A DNA stretch of 64,000 nucleotides from an uncultured Bacteroidaceae bacterium. Lineage in GTDB: Bacteria > Bacteroidota > Bacteroidia > Bacteroidales > SM23-62. The notes beneath the pieces were generated by a model. That model was not told the origin of the DNA. It did not search any database and saw only the letters and a program-made list of their open reading frames with translations. The translations under genes and the position numbers were made by a program. Positions within the stretch are counted from its first letter, which is position 1; each line of letters opens with the position of its first letter. Of this stretch, positions 40,943-56,451 are shown in pieces. The stretch is from assembly GCA_963777115.1 (NCBI GenBank), contig CAVZPP010000003.1:774250-838249 (forward strand), given 5' to 3'.

Positions 40943-41839
40943 ATGAACAAAAACGGATTGAGAGTTGTATTATCTCTGTGCAGCATTGTATTTATTCTAG
41001 CAGGATGCAAGTCTGAGACAAAGACAGATTCAACTGGGAAAGATCCTGTTGACCTGGCTGAATTCAAAGAAACCAGCATTGCCGAGTCCAGGTCCATTTC
41101 CTATGAAATGACCCTGCCTGTTAAGATGGCCGGACTGTTTGACCATGTGGGTGCTGATTTTTTCCCGGAATTTCTGAACCCGGCTGATCAGTTTGGCAAA
41201 TACAACAAGTCCGTTAAGATTGCATTAAACCTTGGTGTTTTCGGGGTTGATCTCAGTTATGTAAAAATGTTCAGCCAGCACCAACGATCCGTAGCATATT
41301 TGAACGCAATCCATCGACTGGCAGGGGACATGGGAATCCCCAGGGAAATTTATGGGGATGTTCTTGAAAACATGGAGTTTTTTGTGACCAACAAAGACAG
41401 CCTTTCCATGGTGGCAATGGACCTGTATCAGACTACTGATGAATATTTAAGAAAGGATGGACAGGAGGGAGCTGCTTCACTTGTTGCCATGGGTGGATGG
41501 ATTGAGTCCATGTATATAGCCACCCGGATATGGGAAATGGATCGTGGTAACCTGGCATTACAGGACAAAATTGCCGAGCAGAAGTATTCCCTTAACAGCC
41601 TGATTGCACTCATGAATAATTATCACGCCGATCTTGATTTGGCCGAATATTTACTTATGCTGAAAAACCTGAGAAGAACCTATGATAAATTCCAGTTGTA
41701 CTATAAGCAAGGAGATGTTCAGGTAGACACCAGCAGCAAAACCATTTCAGCCGGCGGTTACTACATTAATATTACTCCTGATCAGATGGAAGAGATCTCG
41801 GATAAGATTGAAAACCTGAGAACACTCATCATTCATTAA
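40943..41839 (+). CDS. lipoprotein, unknown function
   Basis: The signal peptide with lipobox (FILAGC) is clear. The rest is helical with no recognised family. Confidence 0.6.
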   Translation: MNKNGLRVVLSLCSIVFILAGCKSETKTDSTGKDPVDLAEFKETSIAESRSISYEMTLPVKMAGLFDHVGADFFPEFLNPADQFGKYNKSVKIALNLGVFGVDLSYVKMFSQHQRSVAYLNAIHRLAGDMGIPREIYGDVLENMEFFVTNKDSLSMVAMDLYQTTDEYLRKDGQEGAASLVAMGGWIESMYIATRIWEMDRGNLALQDKIAEQKYSLNSLIALMNNYHADLDLAEYLLMLKNLRRTYDKFQLYYKQGDVQVDTSSKTISAGGYYINITPDQMEEISDKIENLRTLIIH

Positions 41840-43322
41840 AAGTCAACTTAAAATAATTGTAAGATTTCATTCGTAAAAGGGGAATGATCATCTCATTATT
41901 CAGCATGTCATAGTTCTGACGGGGCAGAGGAGTCTTCATTCTTTTTTTTGTCTTCCGGTAAACAATGCTGCCTGTCATCTCTCCCATGGGACCGAGCCCA
42001 ACAACTCTTAGTATGGCCTTGTCATTGGGATGAAATGGTTTCAGGCGGTCTTCAGGAGATATAAATTCATTTTTGTAACTATCGTTGAATATCATGTAAA
42101 TTCTGTCGGTATACCAGGGGGCATGAACGCTGTACGAGGAATGATTGAAATGGGATGAGGGCTCAATGTTCTGTCGTTTTGGGATTACCCGGACCCAGTT
42201 AAGTCTACCGCCCACACTAAAATTTGCTGCAATGATATTCTGATAAGTATCATAATTCTGGTCAAATTGATTTTCCGCCAGCATGATGAAGTCTCCATTA
42301 TTTCTTCGAATCAATTGCCGTATTCTGAAATCAAATAACTCCTTAGGTTCTTTTTTGGGATCCTTGGCAAGGGCTTCGGTTAGAAACCAGGGTTCAAATT
42401 CATACATTCTCTGGTTTTGAAATACCCCCAATTTATTATCCAGCTCAAAGTAAAAAATACCGTCAACCATGCTACGAAAGTGAGTCGGTGAGTAAAAACC
42501 CACACAAACAAGCCGATGATTAATGTCGGGCTCGATCTGAACTCCACGAATATATAGTTCTGGTAGTTCCAGGGAGTAGGTGTTAACGTATTTCCCGTTT
42601 TCGGTGACAGCCACCATATGATAGCGGTTTTTAGTGTCATCCCAGATACTTCTTAAATTCTGGTCATCGAGCAGACTTATAAAATACACATCACCATCGT
42701 CACTGACTTTAATAATGGACTGCCTGGGCGGTCGACCGGGATAGATGATTCTTTGCTCTGCTTCCCACTCAAGTGTTAAACCCTCCCCGAACAGTAAAAA
42801 ATGCACATCCTGAATATTTTTACTCAGTACGTCAAGCCTACTGAAAACCAATAGCTTATTTTCCTTTCTCGACAATTTCAGTCCAAAATCTGATCCCCAT
42901 CCGGCCAGATTTGGCACATTCATCAGGAGGCGGTCGTCATTGTTCTGGAGTAGGGTTTTCTTATCTATGGTTTCTACGAAAAGCAGCATACGTTTCATCC
43001 TTTCCTCTGTAGAAAACATGTAGATCGAATCATGAAAATGATACAATCCAATAAGTTTCCTTCCCCTTAATCCCATCTGCAGGTCAAGATGCTTCCGGCG
43101 AACAGTTCTGAATTTGGTGTCAAGGAATTCAACAGCAGGCCTGTAGTCATAAGAATATACATAATAGCCGGTTTCGTCATGTCCGAAAATCTCAGGTACC
43201 TGGATATTGTTAGCCATATTCAGCTCCGGACCAGAATAGACTTCGATTGGGCTTTTGGCTGGCTGAGAGTAAGTTGAGAGAGAAATAAGCAACAACAATA
43301 CAGGTAGTGAAAAGATTTTCAT
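41829..43322 (-). CDS. secreted protein, unknown function
   Basis: 497 aa with a signal peptide (MKIFSLPVLLLLISLSTYSQ) and beta-rich composition. Convergent 11-nt overlap with the preceding gene. Confidence 0.6.
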   Translation of the reverse strand: MKIFSLPVLLLLISLSTYSQPAKSPIEVYSGPELNMANNIQVPEIFGHDETGYYVYSYDYRPAVEFLDTKFRTVRRKHLDLQMGLRGRKLIGLYHFHDSIYMFSTEERMKRMLLFVETIDKKTLLQNNDDRLLMNVPNLAGWGSDFGLKLSRKENKLLVFSRLDVLSKNIQDVHFLLFGEGLTLEWEAEQRIIYPGRPPRQSIIKVSDDGDVYFISLLDDQNLRSIWDDTKNRYHMVAVTENGKYVNTYSLELPELYIRGVQIEPDINHRLVCVGFYSPTHFRSMVDGIFYFELDNKLGVFQNQRMYEFEPWFLTEALAKDPKKEPKELFDFRIRQLIRRNNGDFIMLAENQFDQNYDTYQNIIAANFSVGGRLNWVRVIPKRQNIEPSSHFNHSSYSVHAPWYTDRIYMIFNDSYKNEFISPEDRLKPFHPNDKAILRVVGLGPMGEMTGSIVYRKTKKRMKTPLPRQNYDMLNNEMIIPLLRMKSYNYFKLTFNE

Positions 43323-43517: not shown

Positions 43518-43591
43518 GGGCCCATAGCTCAGTTGGTTAGAGCATCTGACTCATAATCAGGGGGTCGCTGGTTCGAGCCCAGCTGGGCCCA
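43518..43591 (+). tRNA. tRNA with CAU anticodon (elongator Met or lysidine-type Ile2; acceptor stem favours Ile2)
   Basis: Manual cloverleaf fold gives acceptor GGGCCCA/TGGGCCC, D arm GCTC-AGTTGGTTA-GAGC, anticodon arm TCTGA-CTCATAA-TCAGG, and T arm GCTGG-TTCGAGC-CCAGC. G1:C72 rules out an initiator. C4:G69 and C5:G68 match the known TilS determinants of E. coli tRNA-Ile2. Confidence 0.9.
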
Positions 43592-43603
43592 CTTAATAAT
43601 CAA

Positions 43604-43636
43604 CCACTTACAATTCATTTTGTAGGTGGTTTTTTC
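43604..43636 (+). terminator. rho-independent terminator after the tRNA
   Basis: 9-bp stem CCACTTACA / TGTAGGTGG with one G-U pair, a 8-nt loop, then a T6 run. Confidence 0.7.
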
Positions 43637-43674
43637 TTTGGCGCCAGTTTCTTGCCAGGATTTGGGTGATGAGG

Positions 43675-44157
43675 TTAGTGTTGTGGACCTAATAACTTAG
43701 AACACGCAGAAGATAACTCATTAAGATTTTTTTTCATCCCTTCGTGAAGGTTAGTAGAAAACTTCTTCTTCAATAACCTAGGAAACAAGCCCTGCAACGA
43801 TTCCTCCACATATACCATTGTTCCTCCGTCTTTTCCTTCAAACTGCCAGTTATGTATGGCTTTGGCTCCAAATGTTTTTCCAGTCCACCCTATGGCTTGA
43901 TGCTCATTAACTGTATGAAGCTCTGAGATAAATCCTATACCTCCCGCTTTCCATTTAAATGTTGTTCCTTCTTCCAATTCACCCAGTAATTCTGCTTGAG
44001 AAACATCTAATTGCCATTCTGGCCATTGGTTAATATTGCTGATAATTTGCCATACTATTTCTGGTCTGGCAGGGATAAAAACTTGTTGCTTCTCAACAAC
44101 AGGCGAATTTTCATTTATTGACTTTTTCATCTTTGTTGGAATTAAATTCATTATCAA
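43675..44157 (-). CDS. SRPBCC (polyketide cyclase/START-like) family protein
   Basis: 160 aa. IPARPEIVWQIISNINQWPEW is a typical SRPBCC N-terminal strand-helix. Size and pattern fit. Confidence 0.7.
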   Translation of the reverse strand: MIMNLIPTKMKKSINENSPVVEKQQVFIPARPEIVWQIISNINQWPEWQLDVSQAELLGELEEGTTFKWKAGGIGFISELHTVNEHQAIGWTGKTFGAKAIHNWQFEGKDGGTMVYVEESLQGLFPRLLKKKFSTNLHEGMKKNLNELSSACSKLLGPQH

Positions 44158-44256
44158 TATCGAAAGTACAGTATATAACTTTGATTATGCACAGTCTGGA
44201 ATTGCACCAATGGAGCAGGAACGATTCAATAATAAAACCGTAATGAACTGCATAAT

Positions 44257-45110
44257 TTAGACAGATTCATATTCCTTTTCATAAAGAGGTACAATAATTT
44301 GATTATCCATCCTATTAGCCGATTCAGGATCATGAGATGGAAGGTAGACAGTAGGGAATTTCTTGGTGAATTCCTGGATCTTTACAAGTGTATCCTCAGA
44401 ATCATCGGTACCCACTCCATCTGGTATCCCATTTATCATATTGTCTCTCTGAATAGGAGGCGTCCCCGGCCAGGAAATAATAAATACCGTCCATTTTCAC
44501 GATCACTGACATATGTGTAGCTACATGACCTGGGGTAGCCACTATCATAATCGAACCATCATTTGTTAACGATAGCGACTTTTCAAATGGGCCAAATGGT
44601 TGGTTTTTTAAACTTATCAATGTTGGTTTTAGCCATTTTGGCCATCTATGAGGTAGGTAACCACCCATGATACCTGTTAAACCGCTGGCTGAATTAAACT
44701 CATCTTTCTCAATAAGAAATTCAGAATTTGGAAAGTGATGCATTCCGCCCGCATGATCTGTATGTAAATGGGTCATTATTACTTTTCCTACATCTTTCTC
44801 AGGATCAATCCCCATCTTTGAAAGTTGTGGGCCAATTTCCTCTTCGGGTTTTACATCGAATTGTACGGCCATGGAATAATATGGGTGCCATTTGGGCAGA
44901 TAGCCTTTAGTGCCTGTTTTATGCGTTTCTCCGGTATCCACTACAAATATAGCCTTCATCGTGTTCAATTAACCAGGCATAGATTGGCAACCAATCTGAC
45001 CATTGTTTATCAAAAAAGACTTTGGTTAGTTTTGGGGCCATTCCATTCGCCTTGCTAATTTGATTCAGTTTTACTTTGACTCTTCCTGTTTTTATTCTAT
45101 GAATTTTCAT
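44257..45110 (-). pseudogene. MBL-fold N-acyl-homoserine-lactonase-like hydrolase, two frameshifts
   Basis: Three consecutive ORF pieces in different frames reconstitute one protein: ...LPIYAWLIEHDEGYI / FVVDTGE...MTHLHTDHAGG...FLAGDASYSERQ / INGIPDGVG...TVYLPSHDPE. The frameshifts lie near 44950-44960 and 44436-44445. Confidence 0.8.
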
Positions 45111-45131
45111 ATCACTTTAATTTATTGATGA

Positions 45132-45725
45132 TTAATTCTTCTTATTTCTAACTAAGGCTCCTTCAAGAAAGATCTTTGATATTTCTGCATACAGATCTTG
45201 ATTTGTATAATTGACCTTGTTAAACTGATCCGCATCGACAGTCATTTCCGTAAGGTTGAAATACACTTTCATTAAGATTTCAAGATCAATGTCTTTTCTT
45301 ACTGCTCCTTCAATCACGCCATCATTGAATAGTTTTCTGTAGTAGGTATCAATACGATATTCTCTTCCTTTTTCATAATATTCCCAGATTTCCGGAGTGT
45401 AGAGTTTTAAATCTTGAAGAAACTCCTCATTGATCTCAGTCAGGGTGTTTTTGGTAAATTCAACTACAGAATTCAATTTTCCACAAAAGGATAAATCATT
45501 ATCATTGATAATATCTTCAAGACGGTTATTAATTTCATTGTTAAGTTGATCGATGACAGCTTTAATAAGATCTTCCTTGGTTTGATAATACTTGTAAATT
45601 GTGCTCTTGCTGGTTCGCAAATCCTTGACGATACTATCAATGGACATCCGATTAAATCCATACCTGAGAAATTTGCTTCTAGCTACAGCCAGTATCCTTT
45701 GGTTTTGGTCTTCACTCTTTTTCAT
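45132..45725 (-). CDS. TetR/AcrR family transcriptional regulator
   Basis: 197 aa with the N-terminal HTH RILAVARSKFLRYGFNRMSIDSIVKDLRTSKSTIYKYY. Confidence 0.9.
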   Translation of the reverse strand: MKKSEDQNQRILAVARSKFLRYGFNRMSIDSIVKDLRTSKSTIYKYYQTKEDLIKAVIDQLNNEINNRLEDIINDNDLSFCGKLNSVVEFTKNTLTEINEEFLQDLKLYTPEIWEYYEKGREYRIDTYYRKLFNDGVIEGAVRKDIDLEILMKVYFNLTEMTVDADQFNKVNYTNQDLYAEISKIFLEGALVRNKKN

Positions 45726-45739
45726 GTTGAATAGCGCTA

Positions 45740-46198
45740 TTAAATATGAACAGACCTTCCATCTGGCAGAATCGTCTTCCCGTTTTCTAATAAATCCTTT
45801 AGATTATGCAGGTTATTGGATACCGCTGTTTTCATCTTGTTTTTAAGCAATCTTTCAAGTATTACAGGTGAACCTGTATCAACTTCAAATGTGTCATCAA
45901 GATGTGTCTGATCGTTTACCTGATTCAATTTGAATGTCCTCCTAAATTTAGGACTTGAATTATCTATGGTTTCAATAGCAATAAGACCCGGAGGATTATA
46001 TTCAATAACTTTAAACTTCTGCTGATCATTTTTTCGAATTTGATGGTAGATTGTTCCTGGTCCATCAATATTTGCAGAGACCTTCTTTACACTCTTCACA
46101 TAATAATTCCACAAGGGTACGTTTTCAAATTGCTCGATAAACTTGAATGTATCTTCAATTGATTTATTAATCTTTAGCTCGTTCTTAATCTGTATCAT
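45740..46198 (-). CDS. SRPBCC family protein
   Basis: 152 aa with a START/SRPBCC-like pattern (INKSIEDTFKFIEQFENVPLWNYY). First gene of the minus-strand operon. Confidence 0.65.
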   Translation of the reverse strand: MIQIKNELKINKSIEDTFKFIEQFENVPLWNYYVKSVKKVSANIDGPGTIYHQIRKNDQQKFKVIEYNPPGLIAIETIDNSSPKFRRTFKLNQVNDQTHLDDTFEVDTGSPVILERLLKNKMKTAVSNNLHNLKDLLENGKTILPDGRSVHI

Positions 46199-46216
46199 GA
46201 GTCATATTTTTAATAT

Positions 46217-46249
46217 GTACTAATAGTACTAAATACGTATTAACAGTAC
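46217..46249. promoter_or_regulatory. palindromic operator-like sites upstream of the SRPBCC-TetR operon
   Basis: GTACTA-A-TAGTAC (46217-46229) is a perfect 6+1+6 palindrome. AATACGTATT (46232-46241) is a perfect 10-bp palindrome, and a third GTAC lies at 46246-46249. All are 19-51 nt upstream of the operon start codon. Confidence 0.5.
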
Positions 46250-46518
46250 AAATATAATAAACAATATATTATAAATCAATTGATTATCACTATTTTACAC
46301 GGCCTTATTTAAAAACAATTTGTTTAACTTATAGTATAACAAGCGAATACAGAAATCACTATTTATATAAAAGATCTCTGGTTACATACTATGGGGTGAT
46401 TACCCTCAGCATTTTGCAAGGGTTAATCGATACAAGACAGGATAGAGTCCCAGTGAATACAGATAATCGGATTAATTGCGCAAATGGCTAAAAAACAGGC
46501 ATTTAGGAATTATTGCTA

Positions 46519-46573
46519 ACTCATAATCAGGGGGTCGCTGGTTCGAGCCCAGCTGGGCCCACTTAATAATCAA
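46519..46573 (+). repeat. direct repeat: 3' 43 nt of the tRNA(CAU) plus 12 nt of downstream sequence (att-like)
   Basis: Identical to 43549-43603 (ACTCATAATCAGGGGGTCGCTGGTTCGAGCCCAGCTGGGCCCA+CTTAATAATCAA). No tRNA 5' half lies upstream. Confidence 0.9.
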
Positions 46574-46609
46574 GGAGTTACAACGTAAAAATTGTGACTC
46601 CTTTTTTTT
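46574..46609 (+). terminator. rho-independent terminator-like hairpin after tRNA fragment 2
   Basis: 10-bp stem GGAGTTACAA / TTGTGACTCC with one G-U pair, an 8-nt loop, then T8. Confidence 0.6.
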
Positions 46610-46688
46610 CGCCAGTTTGGTGCCAGGATTTAAGTATGAGATAGGTGGGAATTGACACCATTTATCATGTCATAGGCCCAGAAGAGGA

Positions 46689-46850
46689 TTACAGTTGCGT
46701 TACATCATCATTATCATCAAATGGTGCATCATAATGTACATCGCAGCCATTAGGACATCTCCAGACAATTTGAGTTTTTTTTGAGTCAGGTACTTTTTCC
46801 TGATGTTGAATCATAGTCGTACCACATACATTGCAAGATCTTTTTTTCAT
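46689..46850 (-). CDS. 53-aa zinc-ribbon protein (below ORF-track size cutoff)
   Basis: Manual translation gives MKKRSCNVCGTTMIQHQEKVPDSKKTQIVWRCPNGCDVHYDAPFDDNDDVTQL. It has CxxC...CxxxC spacing and an acidic tail. It is the only ORF in a 490-bp gap. Confidence 0.45.
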   Translation of the reverse strand: MKKRSCNVCGTTMIQHQEKVPDSKKTQIVWRCPNGCDVHYDAPFDDNDDVTQL

Positions 46851-47095
46851 TCTGTTATACTTGTTAATTCAATACAAGAAACATCATCAGACTGGTTTTT
46901 AACACTATAAAGCTAGGATGTTTTAGAATAATGTCAAATTCTGATACTGAATCCTTCCAATGAATTCCTTACTCAATCGGAGAGTTTGGTGGTAGAAAAG
47001 ACCATTCTACAAGTCATGATCTTCCCGATAATCCGTATTTTTATGGACCCCACTTGCGGGAGAATAACAGTGAATCATCGGGAAACTTACCGGAA

Positions 47096-47608
47096 ATGAA
47101 ATACGCACTTGTATGTGGTAAAAAAACAGAGGCCTCAAAAGGAGCCAAAGGTGTTTGTCCTAGTTGTGGATCTGAATTAATTGCCAAATGTGGTCAAGTA
47201 AAGGTGAATCATTGGGCACATAAGGGAACTCGGAATTGTGATCCTTGGTGGGAAAATGAAACGGAATGGCATCGAGAGTGGAAAGGACATTTCCCCACTG
47301 ATTGGCAAGAAGTGGTTCATAAATCAGATACAGGCGAAAAACATATCGCCGATGTAAAAACTGAACAGGGTTGGGTCCTGGAATTTCAACACTCATTTCT
47401 AAACCCGGAAGAACGCCTTTCGCGGAATACATTTTACCCCAAATTAGTATGGGTCGTCGATGGTCTTAGAAGACAGAGGGATCAGCAGCAGTTTCAAAAG
47501 ATATTGGAGGAAAGTGCAGTCATAAACCAAAAACCTCTTATCCGAAAAGTCAACTTTCCGGATGAATGTAGTGTAAATCTTCAGCCTAATCTGGACAGAT
47601 TGGTTTAA
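47096..47608 (+). pseudogene. CoiA-like competence-family nuclease, 3'-truncated by IS insertion
   Basis: MKYALVCGKKTEASKGAKGVCPSCGSELIAKCGQVKVNHWAHK has the CoiA N-terminal zinc-ribbon/H-x-A-H pattern. WH.EWK and HIADV...VLEFQHS form the nuclease core. The native sequence stops at ...KVNFPDE, and the last 13 codons read into the IS left end. Confidence 0.7.
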
Positions 47609-47657
47609 AAATTAAGAGATAGAATTCTTAAATTTCTAACCATTAAAAGTACAGAAA

Positions 47658-48009
47658 ATGAATCAAAAGAAACAGACCGCAGAATCCAAGGTCAAAGAGA
47701 TCCGCAGACACACCAGGAAAAAGTACTCAGCAGAAGAGAAAATCAGAATCGTTATTGAAGGACTTAGAGGTGAAGTCAGTATTGCAGAGTTATGTCGCAG
47801 GGAGGGAATCAATGCCAACTTGTATTACAACTGGAGCAAGGACTTTCTGGAAGCTGGCAAGAAGACGATTAGCTGGTGATATCAAACGGGAAGCCACCAC
47901 ATCGGAGGTACATTACCTGAAAAACGAGAACAATGAACTCAAGCAGCTTGTTGCAGAATTAAGTCTTGAGCTGCGCAAGAATAAAAAAAACACCACTGGT
48001 TCCGAGTAA
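47658..48009 (+). pseudogene. IS3-family transposase OrfA (HTH_Tnp_1 type), one frameshift
   Basis: ...INANLYYNWSKDFLEAGKK|RLAGDIKREATTSEVHYLKNENNELKQLVAELSLE is continuous only if one A is removed near 47861-47866 (GGCAAGAAGACGATTAGCTGGTGAT). Confidence 0.8.
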
Positions 48010-48020
48010 ACTACAGGTAT

Positions 48021-48993
48021 ATGAGACGCAGTGCAAGTGAGAAACTTGAGATCATACGGATCGTTGAAGGCTCAGAACTGGGAGTCAAACGTACCCTGGA
48101 AGAACTGGGCATCAATCGAAGTACATTCTACGAGTGGTATCGTAATTACCTTGAATCATGGTTTAGAAGGCTTAAAACCAAAGGTTCCTGTCAGGAAGAC
48201 TTTTTGGAACAAGATCCCTGAGAAAGAGCGCAACAAGGTTGTTGAATTTGCTCTTGAGAGGCCTGAATTATCACCCAGGGAACTGGCCTGTCATATTACC
48301 GATAATAAGGGCTGGTTCATTAGTGAATCCAGTGTATATCGGATACTGAAACAGCGAGGACTGATTACAAGTCCTGCCTGGATCGTCATGGCAGCGGCTG
48401 ATGAGTTTAAAGACAAAACCAGTCATATCCATCAGCAATGGCAGACTGATTTCACCTACTTTAAGATCATTGGCTGGGGATGGTATTATCTGGCTACTAT
48501 CATGGATGATTACTCCCGATATATCATTACCTGGGAGTTGTGCAGTAATATGGAAACCGATGATGCAAAACGTGTTGTTGGAGAAGCTATTCTGGAATCT
48601 GGTATTAACAAGGACCAACGCCCCAGGTTGCTAACTGATAATGGATCTTGTTATATCTCAGGTGAGTTTAAGAAGTTCATTGATGAAGTAGATCTTGGGC
48701 ATGTACAGGGAGCTCCTTATCATCCTCAAACTCAGGGAAAAATTGAGCGCTATCATCGAACAATGAAGAATGTGGTGAAGCTGGAAAATTACTTTTTCCC
48801 TGACCAATTAAGGGCAGCCCTTGAATCTTTTGTTCATTACTACAATAATGAGCGATACCATGAATCTCTTGAAAATATGACTCCTGCTGATGTATACTTT
48901 GGCAGGGCAAAGCAGATTAAATCGTACAGACATCACATCAAAATGAAAACCCTAAAAGAAAGGAGGAAGATCAACAAAAAAATGTTAGCTTGA
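48021..48993 (+). pseudogene. IS3-family transposase OrfB (HTH + DDE rve integrase core), one frameshift
   Basis: MRRSASEKLEIIRIVEGSELGVKRTLEELGINRSTFYEWYRNYLE is in one frame. HGLEGLKPK...WQTDFTYFKIIGWGWYYLATIMDDYSRYI...TDNGSCYIS...ERYHRTMK is in another. The shift lies near 48150-48160. Confidence 0.85.
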
Positions 48994-49096
48994 TACTATT
49001 GAATTATTGAAAACTCTGCTGAGTTTACAACAATCCAACAGTTCATAATCACATCAAAATCAAGTAATTTGAAAAAGTGAAAACTATCTCTTAACT

Positions 49097-49741
49097 TTAG
49101 GTAACAATTTGTCCAGGAGTATTAGACTTTAAACAAGCATAACCCAATCCACCTCCCTCAAAATATAGGTACTGGTACCCTGAAGAATCAATTGAACCCT
49201 GAACTACTTTATTTTCATCTCTAAGACTTCTGGATTCAGTATCCGGCAGATCCGGATCAGAAATAATTGTTCCATCGCCAAACTTGAATGGTCCTTCAGG
49301 AACATATACCATTTCAATCCCAAACACCTTAAAATCCGGATGGATTATAATTTCCGGATTTAGCGTTACGTTCAAAGTAATATTCGTCACCGGTACATTT
49401 CCAGTAAAATCATTTTCATTTCTAATGAAAATGCCCACACTGTCTTCTTCGGTAATGATTTCCAGATCCCCTTCAGCTATTCCTCCTGTGATTGAAGCAG
49501 GTTCCCAGGCTATTCCATTGTCAGGACGGTATTTCACAAATACCCAGACCGCATCATGAAATCGTTCGGTCTGGCGCCAGGAATTTTTCCAGGAAACATC
49601 GAACGAGACCTGGGTATAATCAGCATTTGGTGTCACATTTGTGATTTCTAATCCGTTGCCCAGAAGGCTGGAGCATGGGAGGGATAATAAAAGGATCAGT
49701 GGTACGATTGTTTTCATTGGATTCTTGAATTTATTATGCAT
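49097..49741 (-). CDS. truncated paralog of the SUMF1-like protein (signal peptide, N-terminal domain and first ~60 aa of the FGE-like domain)
   Basis: Residues 28-149 align colinearly with residues 21-142 of the 513-aa protein at 53251-54792 (GNGLEITNVTPN...HDAVWVF.KYRPDNGI.WE...HPDFKVFGIEMVYVPE). Similarity continues weakly to CLKSNTPGQIV vs CMKYPITQGQFV, then stops 64 bp from the IS right end. Confidence 0.6.
   Translation of the reverse strand: MHNKFKNPMKTIVPLILLLSLPCSSLLGNGLEITNVTPNADYTQVSFDVSWKNSWRQTERFHDAVWVFVKYRPDNGIAWEPASITGGIAEGDLEIITEEDSVGIFIRNENDFTGNVPVTNITLNVTLNPEIIIHPDFKVFGIEMVYVPEGPFKFGDGTIISDPDLPDTESRSLRDENKVVQGSIDSSGYQYLYFEGGGLGYACLKSNTPGQIVT
49295..49660 (-). repeat. dispersed duplication, copy 1 (N-terminal domain coding segment)
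   Basis: Nucleotide-level similarity to 54367-54732, including a near-identical core CATCATGAAA(T/C)CGTTCGGTCTGGCGCCA. Confidence 0.8.
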
Positions 49742-49756
49742 TTGGATGGGTTTTAA

Positions 49757-52700
49757 TCAATAGTGCACGATGATTTTACTTTGATGTATTTTTTCACTAC
49801 CGGTTTCCCTGAACCGCACAACATATACGCCGGGGTCAAGCCTTCCGGCCAGTTGAACTGTTATTCTTTCTTCATCTCTTACATTGAGTTCATATGTTGT
49901 TCTTCCATTCATGTCTATGAATTTCAGACGGCCTTGTTTGACTCTTTCAGGAAATGTAATATTCAGAGGACCACCGGTAACAGGATTCGGGTAAAGCTGC
50001 AGATCGCTCAGGCGATTTATCTCCTTAACTTCTGAAACGACCTTTGGATTCAGGTACTCAGCGTTTGAGTATCCGTCTCCCATTCCGCCACCGTAAATAT
50101 TAAATGTGTTCTGGTTAACCAAATGTTCCAGGCTGTAACCATCTCCGCTTCCGCCTTCATAGATGGAAAAGGTTTCAGCATTGGTAAAGCCTTGATTTAC
50201 ATAGCCATCTCCGGAACCGCCGGGGTAAATGCTGAATTCGGCAGGATTCACAAAATTCCTCCTGGCATATCCATCGTCCCTGCCCCCTGAGTATATATTA
50301 AATACATTGGTATTCAAATGATTAACATACGAGTAACCATCACCCCTACCTCCGGAATATATTTCAAATGAATTTGAATTAGTGTATTTGTCAATATTAT
50401 AACCATCTCCGGCACCTCCGCTGTAACCAGACAAAGCGGTGATGGTAACATTGATATCATCAAAAGACGCACAACCTCCCCGGGTGATAAGATCCAGTGT
50501 GTAATATCCGCTGCTATAAACATTGATGCTACCGAGGCTGTCTCCGGTGCTCCAATCATAAGTGTAATAAGGATCAGCTGGTGCAATAAGGGATATACCG
50601 CCAATCAGGCTGGTATCATTGCCAAGTGAAAAATTCAGTGGCTCTTCAAAGATCACGGAGACGGAGTCTGTCATAGATCCTCCGAATTTTGTAAGGGCAT
50701 GAAGAGAATACGTGCCGGAAGTTGTTACCATCAGGGTATCATTGGTACTCCCGGTATTCCATTGATATTCCATAAAACCCGAAGGTACAGTAAGTATAGT
50801 GGTATCTTCCTTACAATCATACAATGTATTCGGTAAAGCAATGGGATCAAACTCACATATCCGGGGCAGAGAATCGAATTCAAAAGCGGCGATGCCGTAG
50901 CTTACCGAGTTCCCGGCATGTGTAAATCCTCCCACAATAAATAATTCATTAGCTAGCAACACAAGACCATTTATTTCAGTATGGTAGGTGGAGGCTGGAC
51001 TCGCTGCTCCATCAATACCCCCTCCTACGGGCCAGATTTCGCAACCATCGTACATTGCAAGATTCAGTATATCAACGCCGTTAACAGAGGTGAATTGCCC
51101 TCCCAGGTAAACAATGCTGTCATTCATGACATGGATGGAATGTATCTCGCGTTGTTTGCCGCTTGCACCCTGTTCAAATTCGGCAAATGGGAACCATCTT
51201 TCACCGTTCCATGATCCCATACCGGCACTTTCCACCCTTGATCCATCTCCATTATAGAGATTCTGAAATCGACCGGCAACAATTATGTTTCCTGTATGGG
51301 GATCCCTGTCAATGTCCATTACCTGACCTTGTATCCCGTTCCCAACACTGAACCAGTTTCCATCCACATATTTTGCTATTGCTCTGCAGGCTGTATTCCC
51401 ATCGATGGATGAGAAATTTCCACCCACGTATATAGCTGAATCCCCATCGTTAAAGACAACAGGAATTTCACTCGCTCCTGCATCCCCCAATGACTGCCAG
51501 GTACTGCCATTATACAATGCCATGTTTGTTGCACTGGTGCCGTCTACCTGGTTGAAATAACCCGTGATGACAGGGTTTCCCTGGTAAAGGTCAATGTCTC
51601 TCACCCAAGAGGAAGAACCGGGCGTTCTTGTGACGCCGCTTCCAAATCCCTGCCACTGTCCCGTGCTGAGATCCAACATGGCCAGATTAATAGCTGTGAC
51701 ATCACCAGCCTGGGTGAATCTTCCTCCAACGTAGAGGGTATCCCCCTGAAGATGCAGGGCATAAACTGTAACCCAGGAGTATCCTCTTGACAAACCTCCG
51801 GCCAGATCAGACCATTCCCTGGTAAGCGGATCGAAGATGGCAAGACCTTTGGCGGGCCCGCCGTCAAATCCGGAAAATGAACCACCTACAATCAGTTTAT
51901 CATTCCATTTCACCGCATCATAAATAATGGAATTATCACTCCATATGCCTTTGCCCAATGCGTCCCATTGCTGGCCGTCCCATGCCGCCAGATTATTGGC
52001 CAGACCGGTACCAGCCTCATCAAAAACACCCCCTGTATAAATACTGTTCTGAAAGCGCTGAATGGCATTCACGCTCAAGTGATCCCCCCGCAAGCCCCCG
52101 TTGAGGGTATCGCCAAGCCATTTATCTGCTACAGGATCATAAATCCCGATCCCGTTTCCAACGGTGGCAAAAGTATCTGCAGAATAATAAGTCTCCTGAT
52201 GATTGAAATTACCTCCTACATAGAGCTTATTGTTAACAGTGTCTTTGGTAATAGTATTTACATCAAAACTATGGCCTCCCCGCTGGCCAATCCCGCCAAT
52301 GATGGTCCAGGATATGCCGTCAAAGACAGCAAAACCACGATTTACTTCTGAGGGCATGGTGCTATTGGTCCCAAATTTTCCTCCGGCATACATCCGGTCG
52401 CCTGCGGCATCGTAGTAAAGTGATTGAACCGTGGAGGATTGGGCATCTGCTGATGGCCAGGGCTTGTATATGAGTCCTCCTCCGGCTTCTTTCCATTCTC
52501 CGATGGATGGGTCCCAGATGGCGACACTGTTTATATTTACGCTGTCGGATTTGACATCGTAAATATTGATAGATCCACCCACAAACAACTCATCATCTGC
52601 ATTACTTTCCAATGCATATACAATACTTTCAGTGTTAAAAATACTTCCTACGCCTCCGCCGACATCCGACCATTCCAGTGTATTAATATTCAGGGCTGCT

Positions 52701-53251
52701 ACTTTGTAAACATCCAGTGTGGAAGAGTCGGGTTGTGTCACGCGGTCTAAACCCCTGCCTCCGGCATAGAGGGTATCCCCGATCATCTCCAGGGCCAAAA
52801 TCCGAAAAGCATTGATACCGTTCGAGATGGATTCAAAGGATTCCGTGCTTATATTCCAGCGAATTAGATTTTCAGAAGGAACATATGATCCATCTGAATT
52901 GTATGCACCTTTAAAAAACCCGGCAATGTATAACATACCGTCATTTCCCATGATCATGGTTTCCAGGTAACCCCGTCCGCAGGAAGGGCAATGAAAGTTA
53001 CCTCCAAGTTTTTCATACCGTACACCGTCCCAGCGGACAAATTGTCTTTTCCCCGGATCGCCCCCAAACTCACCGGCCCAGGAATTGTTAATGATGTAGA
53101 GGTAATTCTCATCCGCCACCATGGCAGTGATATCTCCCTGGCTGATGCCCGGCATCATAAATTCAGTACTCCAAATGCCATCAAGCTGGGCATATATGGG
53201 AGTTATGCCGGAGAACCAAATCAATATGAAAAGAATTCTGACTAACTTCAT
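49757..53251 (-). CDS. 1164-aa secreted beta-propeller repeat protein with T9SS C-terminal sorting domain
   Basis: A signal peptide is followed by 12 or more repeats of the (L/I)(Y/F)(V/A)GG.F....G type (LYAGGRG, LFVGGSI, MYAGGKF, LYVGGNF, IYTGGVF, LIVGGSF, LYVGGRF, IYVGGNF...). Two Y.W(N/S)TG Ig-like modules and six 21-aa GGxGDGY repeats follow. The C-terminus LQLYPNPVTGGPLNITF...KIIVHY is typical of T9SS type A CTDs. Confidence 0.85.
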   Translation of the reverse strand: MKLVRILFILIWFSGITPIYAQLDGIWSTEFMMPGISQGDITAMVADENYLYIINNSWAGEFGGDPGKRQFVRWDGVRYEKLGGNFHCPSCGRGYLETMIMGNDGMLYIAGFFKGAYNSDGSYVPSENLIRWNISTESFESISNGINAFRILALEMIGDTLYAGGRGLDRVTQPDSSTLDVYKVAALNINTLEWSDVGGGVGSIFNTESIVYALESNADDELFVGGSINIYDVKSDSVNINSVAIWDPSIGEWKEAGGGLIYKPWPSADAQSSTVQSLYYDAAGDRMYAGGKFGTNSTMPSEVNRGFAVFDGISWTIIGGIGQRGGHSFDVNTITKDTVNNKLYVGGNFNHQETYYSADTFATVGNGIGIYDPVADKWLGDTLNGGLRGDHLSVNAIQRFQNSIYTGGVFDEAGTGLANNLAAWDGQQWDALGKGIWSDNSIIYDAVKWNDKLIVGGSFSGFDGGPAKGLAIFDPLTREWSDLAGGLSRGYSWVTVYALHLQGDTLYVGGRFTQAGDVTAINLAMLDLSTGQWQGFGSGVTRTPGSSSWVRDIDLYQGNPVITGYFNQVDGTSATNMALYNGSTWQSLGDAGASEIPVVFNDGDSAIYVGGNFSSIDGNTACRAIAKYVDGNWFSVGNGIQGQVMDIDRDPHTGNIIVAGRFQNLYNGDGSRVESAGMGSWNGERWFPFAEFEQGASGKQREIHSIHVMNDSIVYLGGQFTSVNGVDILNLAMYDGCEIWPVGGGIDGAASPASTYHTEINGLVLLANELFIVGGFTHAGNSVSYGIAAFEFDSLPRICEFDPIALPNTLYDCKEDTTILTVPSGFMEYQWNTGSTNDTLMVTTSGTYSLHALTKFGGSMTDSVSVIFEEPLNFSLGNDTSLIGGISLIAPADPYYTYDWSTGDSLGSINVYSSGYYTLDLITRGGCASFDDINVTITALSGYSGGAGDGYNIDKYTNSNSFEIYSGGRGDGYSYVNHLNTNVFNIYSGGRDDGYARRNFVNPAEFSIYPGGSGDGYVNQGFTNAETFSIYEGGSGDGYSLEHLVNQNTFNIYGGGMGDGYSNAEYLNPKVVSEVKEINRLSDLQLYPNPVTGGPLNITFPERVKQGRLKFIDMNGRTTYELNVRDEERITVQLAGRLDPGVYVVRFRETGSEKIHQSKIIVHY
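50042..50431 (-). repeat. six tandem 63-bp coding repeats (21-aa unit F.IY.GG.GDGY........N...)
   Basis: YSGGAGDGYNIDKYTNSNSFEI / YSGGRGDGYSYVNHLNTNVFNI / YSGGRDDGYARRNFVNPAEFSI / YPGGSGDGYVNQGFTNAETFSI / YEGGSGDGYSLEHLVNQNTFNI / YGGGMGDGYSNAEYLNPKV. Confidence 0.85.
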
Positions 53252-54792
53252 TAGCGTATGCCTCTGCCGGATACGTACATGTCGACTCTTGTTTTCCCAT
53301 AACTAGGGTGTTGAATGTCCCTGTAAAAAAGAAGTGCTTTAATTTCGGATACATTCGTTTTAAGCAACCAGAGGTGATGCAATGTAATTCGGGGCCCATT
53401 CTTATATGTTAAAGCTCTCTCGGTGAGAAGGTATGGGATGACCGGATCCCCGTTCCCCAGATAGAGATGATGTCCCGAACTATAATAAGATATCGATTCA
53501 ATGGACAAGACCAATTCTTTTCCATTTCCACTCAGGTCAGAAATGCCCCAGAAGGATTTTCCGGAGGAGGAACGATTATCCCCCGGGTCAGCTGATATTC
53601 CTGCACGATAGTATAGTGGATGCTGTTCACCTATTTTGTGCCAGAATCTGGGTGGCAGTTCTGTAGTGACTGAAAATCTCTCATCGGTAGTACCTGCATC
53701 AATCAGAGACGGAGGTTGAATAGAATGTGAATGTCCCCACGCATATTCATTTTTTACGGGTTTCATCGGTCCCCTGCAAGCTTTTTCATACTGCATTTCA
53801 TTCATCGGCGCCAATCCGGACCAGAACAGAAATGAAAGCATTGGGTAGATGAATGCCGAATCATATGCAGGGGATGCAAAATTGAAATTTAACACAATAT
53901 CCTTACCATCATTTGGTTCATTGAAAATTCCATTGCGATTCAGGTCATTAACAAACAGAACCGGGCTGTTTGTGGTCGTATCATCCGTTGTAATGTACAC
54001 TCCCTGACGGTAATTACGTGAGGTATCATGAATAAATTGGTTTTGATTATAATGATTGAAAATATCTCTGCCCAGGGCTGTTCTTTGATCCTGCTCCGTC
54101 AGACAATTCAGAAAATCTACAAACTGACCCTGGGTAATCGGATATTTCATACAGTAGAAATCAGAATATCCTGTTGACATTGCAGAGGAAGGGATTACAA
54201 AATCTTCCTCATGCATGCCTTGATCATTGAAAAATTCCAAGGTCACCTTTTCACTGTCTATAAACTGACTTATATGCGACGAGTCGCGGAAAAGGGAGAA
54301 GTATTCATTATTTTTATCCACAATTTTTCTGTTGATTGCACTGTTGTCTCCATAGTAAAAACCTTCTTCAGGAACATATACCATTTCAATTCCGAATACC
54401 TTGAAGTCGGGGTGAATGGCAATTGCCCGATCCAGTGAAACATCCACCGTGACATTGGTTGCAGTCACATCTCCTGTGAAATCTGCCGCGTTCCGCAGGA
54501 ATATGCCCACACTGTCTTGCTGGGAGATCACTTCGAGATTACCATTTGTTGCACCGCCGGTCAAGTGTGCATGTTCCCATCGTATTCCATTGTCGGGCCG
54601 GTATTTGATAAACACCCATACTGCATCATGAAACCGTTCGGTCTGGCGCCACGAGTTTTCCCAGGAAATGTCAAAGCTAAGTTGCGAGTAATCTTCATTG
54701 GGAGTAACATTTGTTATTTCAAGTCCGTTGCCGTAGGAATGAACTAAAAATGACAAAAGTCCCGCTATCGCTAAATATTTTTTGAAATTCAT
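53251..54792 (-). CDS. secreted SUMF1/FGE-sulfatase-fold (GldJ/GldK-like) protein with a novel ~120-aa N-terminal domain
   Basis: 513 aa with a signal peptide and no lipobox. FGE-fold landmarks appear in order: FGIEMVYVPEEGFYYGD, FYCMKYPITQGQFVDFL, WSGLAPMNEMQYEKACRG, YAWGH, SFWGISDLSGNGKELV, and a terminal SGRGIR. Its stop shares one base with the ATG of the downstream 1164-aa gene (TAATG). Confidence 0.7.
   Translation of the reverse strand: MNFKKYLAIAGLLSFLVHSYGNGLEITNVTPNEDYSQLSFDISWENSWRQTERFHDAVWVFIKYRPDNGIRWEHAHLTGGATNGNLEVISQQDSVGIFLRNAADFTGDVTATNVTVDVSLDRAIAIHPDFKVFGIEMVYVPEEGFYYGDNSAINRKIVDKNNEYFSLFRDSSHISQFIDSEKVTLEFFNDQGMHEEDFVIPSSAMSTGYSDFYCMKYPITQGQFVDFLNCLTEQDQRTALGRDIFNHYNQNQFIHDTSRNYRQGVYITTDDTTTNSPVLFVNDLNRNGIFNEPNDGKDIVLNFNFASPAYDSAFIYPMLSFLFWSGLAPMNEMQYEKACRGPMKPVKNEYAWGHSHSIQPPSLIDAGTTDERFSVTTELPPRFWHKIGEQHPLYYRAGISADPGDNRSSSGKSFWGISDLSGNGKELVLSIESISYYSSGHHLYLGNGDPVIPYLLTERALTYKNGPRITLHHLWLLKTNVSEIKALLFYRDIQHPSYGKTRVDMYVSGRGIR
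54367..54732 (-). repeat. dispersed duplication, copy 2 (N-terminal domain coding segment)
   Basis: Partner of 49295-49660. See that entry. Confidence 0.8.
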
Positions 54793-54974
54793 TTTGGATA
54801 AAAATTTGTTTTAGACGCAAATATAACATCATGCTAGAAGGTAAAATTGGAAAAAACGGACAAAAAGACTCAAAACTCTTAAATAGCTTCCTGGTACGTG
54901 CGATTTCTTATTTTTTTGCCTGATTCTGCTTCAAAAACCTGGTTTAATTATACAGGGGAGAGAGTTAAATATAT

Positions 54975-55800
54975 CAGGACCTGACAGAGCCAAGATAACT
55001 TTTTAGAAAGGAATGACCACTTTCAAGGAACTCTGTTGGAGATTGTCCCAGGTAGTTTTTAAAATCGTTAATAAAATGGGGCTGGTCGTAGTATCCGTTT
55101 TCAAGCATCAGGTTCTAATAAGCGGTCTTATTCCCACTTCGTATGGCTTCGAAAACCGAATTAAACTGAATGATTTTACAATATTTTTTAGGACTGATGC
55201 CAATTACCTGACTGAATACCCTTCGGAGCTGTCTTTCACTAACATTAACGCTTGAAGCCAGTTCACTCATCCGAATATTGCCATTCTTTCTCAAAATAAT
55301 ATCCAGGGCATCATCGAGTACATTATTAGGATTTATATCAGGAAGACGCTCAATCAAAACTTCCTGCATTAATTCGGCCAGTTTAAGGGGATCATCGACG
55401 GATGACAAACGTTGACGTAATTGTTTGGCTATCACAGGGATTTTTTACTTTCAGAAAGATACCACTATCCGTAATCTCTCTACCATTAGTATTAAAGAAA
55501 TAACTCATACTGGTAGGAAGCATTTCCAGTCCCACATGTAAGTAATCTCCGTTGAGGGTGAAATAGGGAAATTCTTTATCAAGCTGGCCGACAAGATATA
55601 ATTGCTCATCGGATTCAATTATCAAATTGCTGTAATTTATCCTGATCGGGAAACGGCTGTAGGTAAAAATATGAAAAACCTGTTGGTACAATTGGGATGA
55701 TTTCGTTATTTAGGCCAGAGGCAGTAGTAATCAGTATGCTTCTTACATGATTCGTAATGGCTTCATGCGGAGGATGCACTTCAATTTTTAATTTTTCCAT
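54975..55800 (-). pseudogene. AraC family transcriptional regulator, two frameshifts plus an in-frame TAG
   Basis: The N-terminal part is split across three frames (55615-55800, 55392-55691, 55115-55435). The HTH region ...MSELASSVNVSERQLRRVFSQVIGISPKKY...SGNKTAY*NLMLENGYYDQPHFINDFKNYLGQSPTEF is interrupted by TAG at 55115-55117. Confidence 0.8.
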
Positions 55801-56141
55801 GTGACAACTTTTACTATTTGGACCAGGTTTTGATCAGAATTTCCGTTCACAAGATAAAAGTATATTTACAGGCTTCTATAATACTCCCCATTTCCTTTAA
55901 CAAAGGCCACATTTGCTAAGTTAAACAATTGATTGTTTTGAGTTGCTTTTTTACAGAAGGATAATAAAAAAGGTGCCAGTTTTTTCGCCAGTATTCCTGC
56001 AAATCCATGTAAACCAGTGTAAAATTTTACATAAAATGAACAGTTAATTTTATTGATAAAAACACATAAATCCCTGTAAATGTTGAAGATAACCTCAAAT
56101 AATCCGATTTTTTCGGACCGAATAATATATCGAAAAAAGGA

Positions 56142-56185
56142 GACTCATAATCAGGGGGTCGCTGGTTCGAGCCCAGCTGGGCCCA
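56142..56185 (+). repeat. direct repeat: 3' 44 nt of the tRNA(CAU) (att-like, distal boundary)
   Basis: Identical to 43548-43591. The upstream sequence is unrelated to the tRNA 5' half, and the downstream sequence differs from copies 1 and 2. Confidence 0.9.
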
Positions 56186-56195
56186 CAGTTGATAA

Positions 56196-56234
56196 CCAAC
56201 CACTTGGAGTAATTTCCAGCTGGTTGGTTTTTTT
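56196..56234 (+). terminator. rho-independent terminator-like hairpin after tRNA fragment 3
   Basis: Stem CCAACCACTTGG / CCAGCTGGTTGG (10 of 12 paired), 8-nt loop, then T7. Confidence 0.6.
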
Positions 56235-56451
56235 GTTGGTATAAACCAATGAATAAACATTGTGTGAGGTAGCTGAATAATTTATATGCCGGTGCTCATT
56301 AAGCAAACCTAAGAGAATAATCGACGTAGCCTTCTTTAATATACCTGAGTGAGTCGGGAATATTGCTTCGTATAAAAATGGGACTGCCTGCATGTGCGAC
56401 AGTCCCATTTAAAATTATAAGATTTATATTATTGAATACCTGTAGAGTAAT

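Follow-up and report, generated by a model that had tools for sequence, protein, structure and literature searches.

How did two adjacent islands without a recombinase gene come to lie at the 3′ end of a tRNA gene, and could they still move? The question is raised by a 64,000-nt stretch of DNA from contig CAVZPP010000003.1 of an uncultured Bacteroidaceae bacterium (the whole stretch is referred to as the window), in which an intact tRNA(CAU) gene is followed by two further copies of its 3′ half. The copies delimit island 1 (2.9 kb, positions 43593 to 46518) and island 2 (9.6 kb, positions 46563 to 56141). Comparison with related loci identified island 2 as a complete, integrase-less member of a widespread family of Bacteroidales elements with conserved ends, here called LE-A (left) and RE-A (right), whereas island 1 is a mosaic that combines the family left end with a nonfamily right end. 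On balance, we lean toward regarding the islands as nonautonomous integrative elements, similar to cis-mobilizable elements (CIMEs), that may still be mobilized in trans or by accretion.

Anatomy of the locus

ARAGORN detected a single tRNA in the window, a tRNA-Met(cat) on the plus strand at positions 43518 to 43592, and the Rfam tRNA family RF00005 matched positions 43518 to 43591 with 72 bits. The gene is intact, does not encode the CCA end, and forms the attL (left attachment site) side of the array. Exact matches to a 42-nt core, CTCATAATCAGGGGGTCGCTGGTTCGAGCCCAGCTGGGCCCA, start at positions 43550, 46520, and 56144; with the shared A before it and the shared C after it, the block of identity comprises 44 nt and extends from the last base of the 5′ strand of the anticodon stem through the anticodon loop to the discriminator and one further base. 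Copy 1 (43549 to 43592) is part of the tRNA gene, reaching from the anticodon loop to the 3′ end, whereas copy 2 (46519 to 46562) and copy 3 (56142 to 56186; 44-nt block at 56143 to 56186, with one extra shared base from 56142) are preceded by DNA unrelated to the tRNA 5′ half. All three lie on the plus strand and were located by exact matching and alignment. No fourth copy was present in the window at up to three mismatches, searches with half-cores returned the same three sites, and the number of copies expected by chance was 0.00 (100 shuffles). Behind every copy lie a hairpin and a T-run, found by a consensus scan at 43602 to 43631 and 46572 to 46603 and by direct reading of the sequence at 56194 to 56229 (T-run at 56230 to 56236). 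A preliminary description, made from the sequence alone, had reported the tRNA gene and the three repeats with coordinates that proved right within 1 nt (ARAGORN, exact search), and its observation that copies 2 and 3 lack the 5′ half and are each followed by a hairpin and T-run was reproduced by reading and scan. The exact 44-nt repeats, combined with the presence of an intact tRNA at just one end, also support its proposal that the array is the footprint of site-specific integration into the tRNA 3′ end, apparently twice in tandem.

Neither island carries an integrase of its own beside an att site, as judged by Pfam, PHROGs, tblastn, and a custom hidden Markov model (HMM). Specifically, Pfam searches with all open reading frames (ORFs) of at least 60 amino acids (aa), including the 33 remaining ones, revealed no recombinase, excisionase, or relaxase between the repeats, and a PHROGs scan of the islands returned nothing relevant. 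Across all 64 kb, tblastn with four Bacteroidales integrases from related loci, either Pfam-confirmed or homologous, detected no tyrosine integrase (best E = 0.16), nor did an HMM built from nine Bacteroidales integrases and run against 1348 stop-to-stop segments of at least 25 aa (best E = 0.7). Remnants of conjugation, integrase, or relaxase genes were likewise absent from the islands. The statement of the preliminary description that no recombinase lies between the repeats thus stands, since the profile searches for integrases, excisionases, and relaxases exposed no divergent enzyme either.

The sole transposase between the repeats, also recognized in the preliminary description, belongs to a degraded insertion sequence (IS) of the IS3 family on the plus strand (47608 to 49098; orfA split, orfB [rve] at 48031 to 48993). 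It occurs once in the window, inside island 2, has 20-nt terminal inverted repeats of its own at 47608 and 49098, and borders neither island; with only this one copy, an IS3 composite transposon was rejected. [quoted passage not shown] Viral contigs contained no match to either the core or the RE-A pattern, and a phage or plasmid origin was discarded as well, the plasmid and phage collections having yielded tRNA similarity only.

With respect to the tRNA gene itself, the acceptor pairs C4-G69 and C5-G68 agree with the determinants for TilS, and the gene may encode tRNA-Ile2(CAU) rather than tRNA-Met. Below the gathering threshold, the Rfam family RF04354 (Plastid-ycf2 5′UTR) matched the antisense strand of the tRNA (43518 to 43592, 52 bits) and the minus strand of the second fragment (46478 to 46562, 30 bits); plastid trnI-CAU adjoins ycf2. 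The 298-aa and 497-aa genes directly upstream of the tRNA (40943 to 43322) encode proteins without Pfam domains. This pair of hypothetical genes is syntenic with the tRNA and conserved in related loci (L116, L120, L121/L122), and 42 homologs of the 497-aa protein were found.

The LE-A/RE-A family and its integrases

Alignment of the DNA following copies 1 and 2 revealed homology over about 90 nt beyond the tRNA, comprising CTTAATAATCAA, the hairpin, the T-run, and GCCAG-N6-GCCAG. LE-A was accordingly defined by a CTTAATAATCAA-type spacer, a hairpin containing TTACA, a T-run, and GCCAG-N6-GCCAGGAT, and it is present at the left end of both islands, on the plus strand. The first copy (43593 to 43680; CTTAATAATCAA, terminator hairpin at 43602 to 43631, T-run, GCCAG-N6-GCCAG at 43643 to 43658) is 90 to 96% identical to the left ends of six related loci (L008, L022, L052, L089, L093, and L126). 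The second (46563 to 46670) has the same design, with compensatory changes in the stem of its hairpin (46572 to 46603) and GCCAG-N6-GCCAG at 46611 to 46626. RE-A, defined as a 175-nt right end that begins with GCCAGTTTTTTCGCCAG and ends at the core, is present in island 2 (55967 to 56141, plus strand) and absent from island 1. The sequence shared by the two islands is confined to their left ends. RE-A contains GCCAG-N7-GCCAG (55975 to 55991) and the palindrome TGTAAAATTTTACA and terminates in ...TTCGGACCGAATAATATATCGAAAAAAGGAGA. The motif GCCAG-N5-8-GCCAG occurs four times in the window versus 0.21 times expected, and three of the four occurrences are those in the two LE-A copies and RE-A, all on the plus strand. 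From their position and by analogy, we infer that the GCCAG repeats may be arm-type sites to which an integrase would bind. RE-A, the tRNA 3′ half, and LE-A together make up a putative split attachment site of approximately 310 bp that defines the family. The fourth GCCAG pair (GCCAG-N7-GCCAG, GCCAGATTATTGGCCAG, 51987 to 52003) lies inside a 1164-aa gene, with no similarity to left or right ends around it, and is probably due to chance.

A scan of contigs representing one genome per species with the bare 42-nt core yielded at least 118 stretches with 122 core copies, which divide into 90 intact tRNAs and 32 fragments or edge cases; the related core loci all come from Bacteroidales or Bacteroidota metagenome-assembled genomes (MAGs). 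RE-A precedes about half of the true fragments, and LE-A follows many tRNAs or fragments. Although noncoding, RE-A matches the window copy at 82 to 93% identity in over 20 genome loci of differing Bacteroidales species; for coding sequences, none of these RE-A loci exceeds 78% identity to the window. A metagenome set of 80 loci was retrieved with the RE-A pattern; over 71 full-length metagenome matches, the median identity of RE-A was 86%. Its homology sets in abruptly at the GCCAG repeat, and what lies upstream is unrelated cargo. A limited search of the full-text literature retrieved no description of this LE-A/RE-A family of Bacteroidales.

For 32 RE-A copies, the one in the window included, the locus also contains an upstream tRNA 3′ boundary, and these copies thus delimit complete units of 0.4 to 9.6 kb. 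None of these 32 bounded cassettes contains an integrase. Island 2 is the largest, the 31 others measuring 0.4 to 6.6 kb and carrying unrelated cargo, and the sole integrase remnant abutting cassette boundaries is a 91-aa piece in L159. A Pfam scan of 46 of the 62 nonoverlapping ORFs of at least 100 aa from the 31 nonwindow cassettes gave matches that include Fic, AAA_14/DUF4143, AraC, NmrA, SDR, and one IS4 transposase; AbiE-like pairs were spotted by eye. Two or three cassettes commonly stand together in an array (e.g., L008, L022, L134, L165, L194, and L200), and cargo is reshuffled among genomes: a Fic cassette recurs with 92 to 94% identity in L093, L132/L149, and L178, and an AbiE-like pair is common to L113 and L168, each time beside unrelated neighbors. 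Locus L200 was considered as a circular cassette and recognized as a true array, its two RE-A copies being 87% identical.

Integrases were found in some relatives. Those beside fragments of the same core in L003, L019, and L080 combine Phage_int_SAM_5 with Phage_integrase, and two of the three additionally have Arm-DNA-bind_5 (Pfam). One group, termed Int-1 (L003, L032, and L088, plus a remnant in L058), is associated with ends of the LE-A/RE-A design; as read in L003, two GCCAG(G) repeats stand about 107 to 123 nt before the core, and past the core, Int-1 ends have a hairpin followed by two to three GCCAGGTTT repeats. On three contigs, larger elements with RE-A encode a second tyrosine integrase, Int-A, upstream of RE-A and not separated from it by a core, the intervening cargo amounting to 1.2 kb in L172, 1.7 kb in L190, and 14 kb in Ga0164313_10002797 (L221 plus L146). 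Int-A is 45 to 51% identical to Int-1, and the Int-A proteins of L172 and L190 share 97.5% identity over the C-terminal 120 aa. In close homologs on other contigs, an HTH_17 excisionase-like ORF is situated immediately upstream of Int-A, and the Int-A family comprises 520 proteins at E ≤ 1e-60. Accretion of a cassette beside an integrase-bearing element is seen in L003, where a 2.8-kb cassette directly follows the Int-1 element, and in L172. Conjugation genes were seen in none of the integrase-bearing relatives.

Across 28 left-end variants, 8 of the 12 predicted pairs in the hairpin behind the core show double compensatory changes, and because the hairpin is preserved through such changes, the terminator is element-borne and under selection. 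The outer stem covaries freely, whereas the inner TTACA...TGTA segment is invariant in the 28 left ends and may be a protein-binding site, e.g., a core-proximal site for the integrase or a site for a host factor.

Several irregular tRNA pieces were observed in addition. A partial second piece consisting only of 22 nt of T-arm and acceptor often lies about 150 to 200 nt past a complete fragment, with another left end behind it (coordinates for the core on the plus strand: L003 4546-4641, L006 1766-1874, L055 5868-5976, L084 226-315, and L108 5586-691); this suggests a second class of events with crossover in the T-loop or, alternatively, very small inserted units. Past intact tRNAs, a hairpin followed by GCTGG(G/T)CTCGAAGCCnCCCTGCAnTCTGGCCCCTC recurs as a flank (L004, L028, L038, L041, L085, L111, and L118), and the CTCGAAGCCnCCCTGCAnTCTGGCCCCTC flank resembles a T-arm and acceptor of the tRNA that have degenerated with age, which would make it an ancient att scar conserved in many MAGs.

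Occupancy, proposed history, and rival explanations

The DNA to the right of copy 3 (56187 to 56287, plus strand; hairpin at 56194 to 56229 and T-run), termed LE-C, follows intact tRNAs in relatives, with 88 to 95% identity in L121/L122, L017, L025/L123, L031, L040, and L051. In L121 and L122, the intact tRNA is joined directly to a flank 90.5% identical to window positions 56142 to 56257, no second core is present within 10 kb, and upstream synteny is preserved (68% aa identity for a flanking protein, 70 to 73% nucleotide identity over approximately 13 kb). The same direct junction exists in L017, L025, L031, L040, and L051, and a different flank follows the tRNA in L120. Empty sites of the kind that the preliminary description proposed to look for, an intact tRNA joined to a flank of the type beginning at 56187, hence exist in L121/L122 and five further loci; occupancy of the site varies among relatives, in a comparison at species level or beyond. 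LE-C is treated here as a native-type flank, judged from its sequence context. The possibility that it is the left end of a third island was rejected, as it follows intact tRNAs in seven related loci and the window has no fourth core; LE-C also follows fragments, and it bounds a TetR/efflux unit in L055.

The cargo of island 1 recurs in other genomes as well. Its block from 43697 to 46369 is 86 to 90% identical to L123 through L126. In L123, the block follows an intact tRNA and the LE-C flank and reaches 90% identity versus 78% for a gene conserved upstream. In L126, a core and LE-A are followed by a Fic/AAA_14 cassette and RE-A, after which come a variant fragment, LE-C, the four island 1 genes, and a second variant fragment. 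Given these arrangements, at least two genomes have tRNA pieces on both sides of the four-gene block, at differing array positions and with differing left ends. The right end of island 1 (46370 to 46518, plus strand) lacks GCCAG repeats and shows no resemblance to RE-A; just the final approximately 7 nt (..TTGCTAA) recall the right ends of L024 and L055. Some tRNA fragments have the T-arm replaced by a hairpin-containing insert of 40 to 110 nt. One such insert, TTTTCAGTCTnTCCTCCGGAGTCCAAAGGACAAAGGAGGAA, is common to both L126 fragments bounding the four-gene block (approximately 3056 to 3140 and 6066 to 6130 of L126 reverse-complemented); others start at approximately 2244 in L093, 2992 in L113, and 4502 in L082 (core on the plus strand).

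We propose that the locus started as tRNA, LE-C, and chromosome and that a tyrosine integrase then acted on tRNA(CAU) twice, with crossover in the anticodon loop, by analogy with characterized tyrosine integrases. Each incoming circle would have contributed both a tRNA 3′ half and a terminator hairpin, so that the tRNA would have stayed intact while the earlier 3′ half was displaced rightward, copy 3 being the putative original. Insertion of island 2 would have produced the order tRNA, LE-A, cargo, and RE-A; island 1 would have entered afterwards at the tRNA or, in the opposite order of events, at the internal core. Since both exact cores and both GCCAG-bearing arms are kept, island 2 is a putatively complete attL/attR substrate. 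Island 1 is probably not excisable alone. Taken as a pair, the islands have LE-A on the tRNA side and RE-A ahead of copy 3 and could leave as one 12.6-kb composite. Movement of island 2 would require an Int-A-type integrase, probably together with the HTH_17 excisionase, supplied in trans from elsewhere in the genome; alternatively, a related element landing beside island 2 could supply these functions in cis. The preliminary description had considered either decayed remnants or satellite-type elements mobilized in trans. The evidence leans toward nonautonomous elements with an integrase encoded elsewhere, at least for island 2 with its two retained arms, and away from satellites in the phage sense, as phage or packaging genes and matches in viral collections are lacking.

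A number of points weigh against mobility of this kind. Pseudogenes or broken genes are present in both islands (the metallo-beta-lactamase-fold gene, the AraC regulator, the CoiA-like ORF, and the IS3 element); because of these pseudogenes and the IS-associated truncation at 47608, which hints at a deletion, the copy in this genome would not be young but would have experienced long residence and decay. The binding of an integrase to the GCCAG repeats is deduced from position and analogy. The Int-A homologs in L218 to L222 have no recognizable core, GCCAG repeats, or tRNA in the sequence examined, and for this reason no complete autonomous Int-A element was delimited. A search for terminal direct repeats disclosed no circular contigs among the loci. 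Among the 120 Int-A homologs listed of the 520, none is placed on a contig of 848,884 nt, the length of the one that includes the window. The conservation of RE-A in the metagenome set is partly a matter of ascertainment, the core-retrieved genome set alone being unbiased in this respect, and as the loci measure at most 15 kb, large integrase-bearing elements are undersampled among the bounded cassettes.

The islands might, on the other hand, be inert scars, i.e., once-autonomous elements that lost their integrase modules by deletion and are now fixed, drifting DNA without any mobilization. This explanation, possible but rather less than probable in our estimation, would account for the pseudogenes in both islands, for the absence of an integrase from all 64 kb, for the missing RE-A arm of island 1, and for the ORF truncated by the IS3 element, the lost remainder of which is consistent with an IS-mediated deletion; degraded elements and scattered partial tRNAs are, moreover, a common fate elsewhere (bioRxiv 10.1101/2020.12.28.424599; PMC5704250). 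It fits less well with the intact arms of island 2, in which both GCCAG repeat pairs are present, with the conservation of RE-A across species beyond that of the coding flanks, and with the occurrence of identical cassette types beside unrelated neighbors. Nor does it fit well with the homology boundaries, which are sharp and the same in all cassettes, with no abutting integrase remnant other than the 91 aa in L159. At the opposite extreme, the approximately 310-bp module may be a portable site of recombination by which any cargo becomes a cassette. The arrays at tRNA(CAU) would then be recombinase-less and integron-like, serviced in trans by Int-A or Int-1 of rarer master elements or by an unlinked chromosomal integrase, and their cassettes would form a separate class of nonautonomous integrative elements that propagates actively, as opposed to sporadic products of decay. 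We regard this broader proposal as doubtful.

Two further explanations were weighed. The joining of contigs from different organisms at the shared 44-nt core, which would make the locus an assembly chimera and the tandem array absent from any one genome, is suggested by the origin of the window from an 848,884-nt contig of an uncultured-type genome, by the exact occurrence of the core in at least 118 genome stretches, and by the fact that the only independent contig with an identical right flank (L001, Logan; retrieved with the 478-aa gene of that flank) ends exactly at the core. It is nevertheless improbable: RE-A, core, and left end stand together within single contigs of dozens of independent assemblies (including L003, L008, L022, L134, L165, L194, and L200), the junction types fit a simple integration model with the native LE-C flank at the far right, and there is no sharp break in GC content (0.34 to 0.49 in the islands versus about 0.38 to 0.46 in the flanks). 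An origin independent of a site-specific recombinase, in which the tRNA 3′ region was duplicated segmentally or recombined homologously or the IS3 element produced the repeats, appears most unlikely of all. The IS3 element does lie inside island 2, but it is a single IS with inverted repeats of its own that bound neither island. The repeat starts exactly at the anticodon loop, as att sites of the integrase type do, conserved arms flank the core in many genomes, where they stand beside tyrosine integrases, and the islands have only their left ends in common.

Relation to known systems and contents of the islands

Nonautonomous elements of the kind favored here have precedents. CIMEs have [quoted passage not shown] and were described, together with tandem accretion, for ICESt1 and ICESt3 of Streptococcus thermophilus (PMC5704250). 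The islands resemble them in lacking integration and transfer genes, in their tandem arrangement at the 3′ end of a target gene with att repeats in between, and in that mobilization would be possible once a related, integrase-bearing element adjoins, L003 and L172 being examples of such neighbors. They differ in the Bacteroidota host and the tRNA(CAU) target, and no derivation from an integrative and conjugative or integrative and mobilizable element was seen, as conjugation and mobilization genes or their remnants are absent. In addition, the integrase-less forms are not one-off decayed copies but form a large, sequence-conserved family with swapped cargo. The tycheposon islands of Prochlorococcus are similar in that partial tRNAs lie between elements and most island material is integrase-less, whereas tycheposons themselves are defined by an integrase and a replication module, and the nonelement material “lacks clear boundaries,” in contrast to the sharp, conserved, arm-bearing boundaries at both ends of the Bacteroidales cassettes (bioRxiv 10.1101/2020.12.28.424599).

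Integron arrays likewise consist of small, recombinase-less units of mixed cargo, frequently toxin-antitoxin or Fic genes, each with a conserved recombination site. An integron cassette array was rejected here: there is no folded site of the attC type and no IntI/attI/Pc platform, cargo lies on both strands, and the site is a double-stranded, tRNA-derived core with arms. NBU1, a mobilizable element of Bacteroides, inserts at the 3′ end of a tRNA-Leu gene by means of IntN1, a tyrosine integrase of about 400 aa with an N-terminal arm-binding/SAM-like domain. It thus shares with the islands the Bacteroidota host, the tRNA 3′ end, the dependence on a tyrosine integrase that we propose for them, and an att site with arms, but it has its own integrase and mobilization gene and a short, 3′-terminal core; the islands have neither gene, and their 44-nt core starts at the anticodon loop. 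Pseudo-SCC elements and composites of the staphylococcal cassette chromosome (SCC) at rlmH (orfX) offer a further parallel: recombinase-less cassettes between direct repeats of the integration site are stacked in tandem at the 3′ end of one gene, and another cassette can supply the recombinase for their excision. The differences are the serine recombinases (Ccr), the protein-coding target, and the short repeats without arm-type sites. An arrangement of this kind is already known; at the level of the family, the pattern found here is one in which many cassettes lack a recombinase and few masters bear an integrase.

If mobilization in trans does take place, a short, portable att module would suffice to disperse any cargo across Bacteroidales, and the cost of carrying a recombinase would be saved. 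Efflux genes, secreted proteins, regulators, and toxin systems of the Fic and AbiE types are among the cargo seen so far. A single tRNA gene would in that case serve as a dock for cassettes comparable to an integron, which would help to explain integrase-free variable regions beside tRNA genes in MAGs, and the GCCAG-repeat arms together with the tRNA half would provide an annotation signature for delimiting such islands. If the islands are only scars, the locus would be an ordinary record of past integrations.

Island 1, bounded by core copies 1 and 2, carries four genes on the minus strand (“G4,” 43675 to 46198), identified by Pfam as an SRPBCC protein (43675 to 44157), a metallo-beta-lactamase-fold pseudogene in three ORF pieces (44257 to 45110), a TetR regulator (45132 to 45725), and a second SRPBCC protein (45740 to 46198). 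In island 2, LE-A is directly followed by a 53-aa, cysteine-rich zinc-ribbon ORF (CNVCG...CPNGC) on the minus strand (46689 to 46850). As a recombinase candidate, this ORF was discarded, its match to Zn_ribbon_recom being weak (E = 0.005), under the cutoff, and no evidence of such a function; it also has a subthreshold match to Ntox47 and is not conserved in other cassettes. It is followed on the plus strand by a CoiA_N-like ORF of 184 aa (47054 to 47608; PF25164, E = 3e-9) that is truncated at the left inverted repeat of the IS3 element. Pieces resembling that element (47731 to 49099) occur in or beside cassettes at five unrelated metagenome loci (L127, L157, L165, L188, and L198), and the arrays may be a preferred landing zone for it.

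The remaining cargo of island 2 comprises three genes on the minus strand (49097 to 54792; Pfam), which encode a 214-aa protein, a 1164-aa beta-propeller protein with a sorting tail of the type IX secretion system (T9SS), and a 513-aa protein that weakly resembles the FGE-sulfatase family. They are followed by an AraC-type regulator pseudogene in overlapping ORF pieces (55115 to 55800, minus strand; HTH_AraC/HTH_18 on 55115 to 55435). T9SS sorting domains and SusD were detected by Pfam among the window proteins and, like the related loci, point to a host of Bacteroidales type. The 214-aa and 513-aa proteins have in common an N-terminal domain of about 150 aa, in which a signal peptide is followed by GNGLEITNVTPN..., and the shorter gene may be a truncated paralog. 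In the DNA, this shared domain is seen as a 300-nt direct repeat with 70% identity at 49275 to 49574 and 54347 to 54646.

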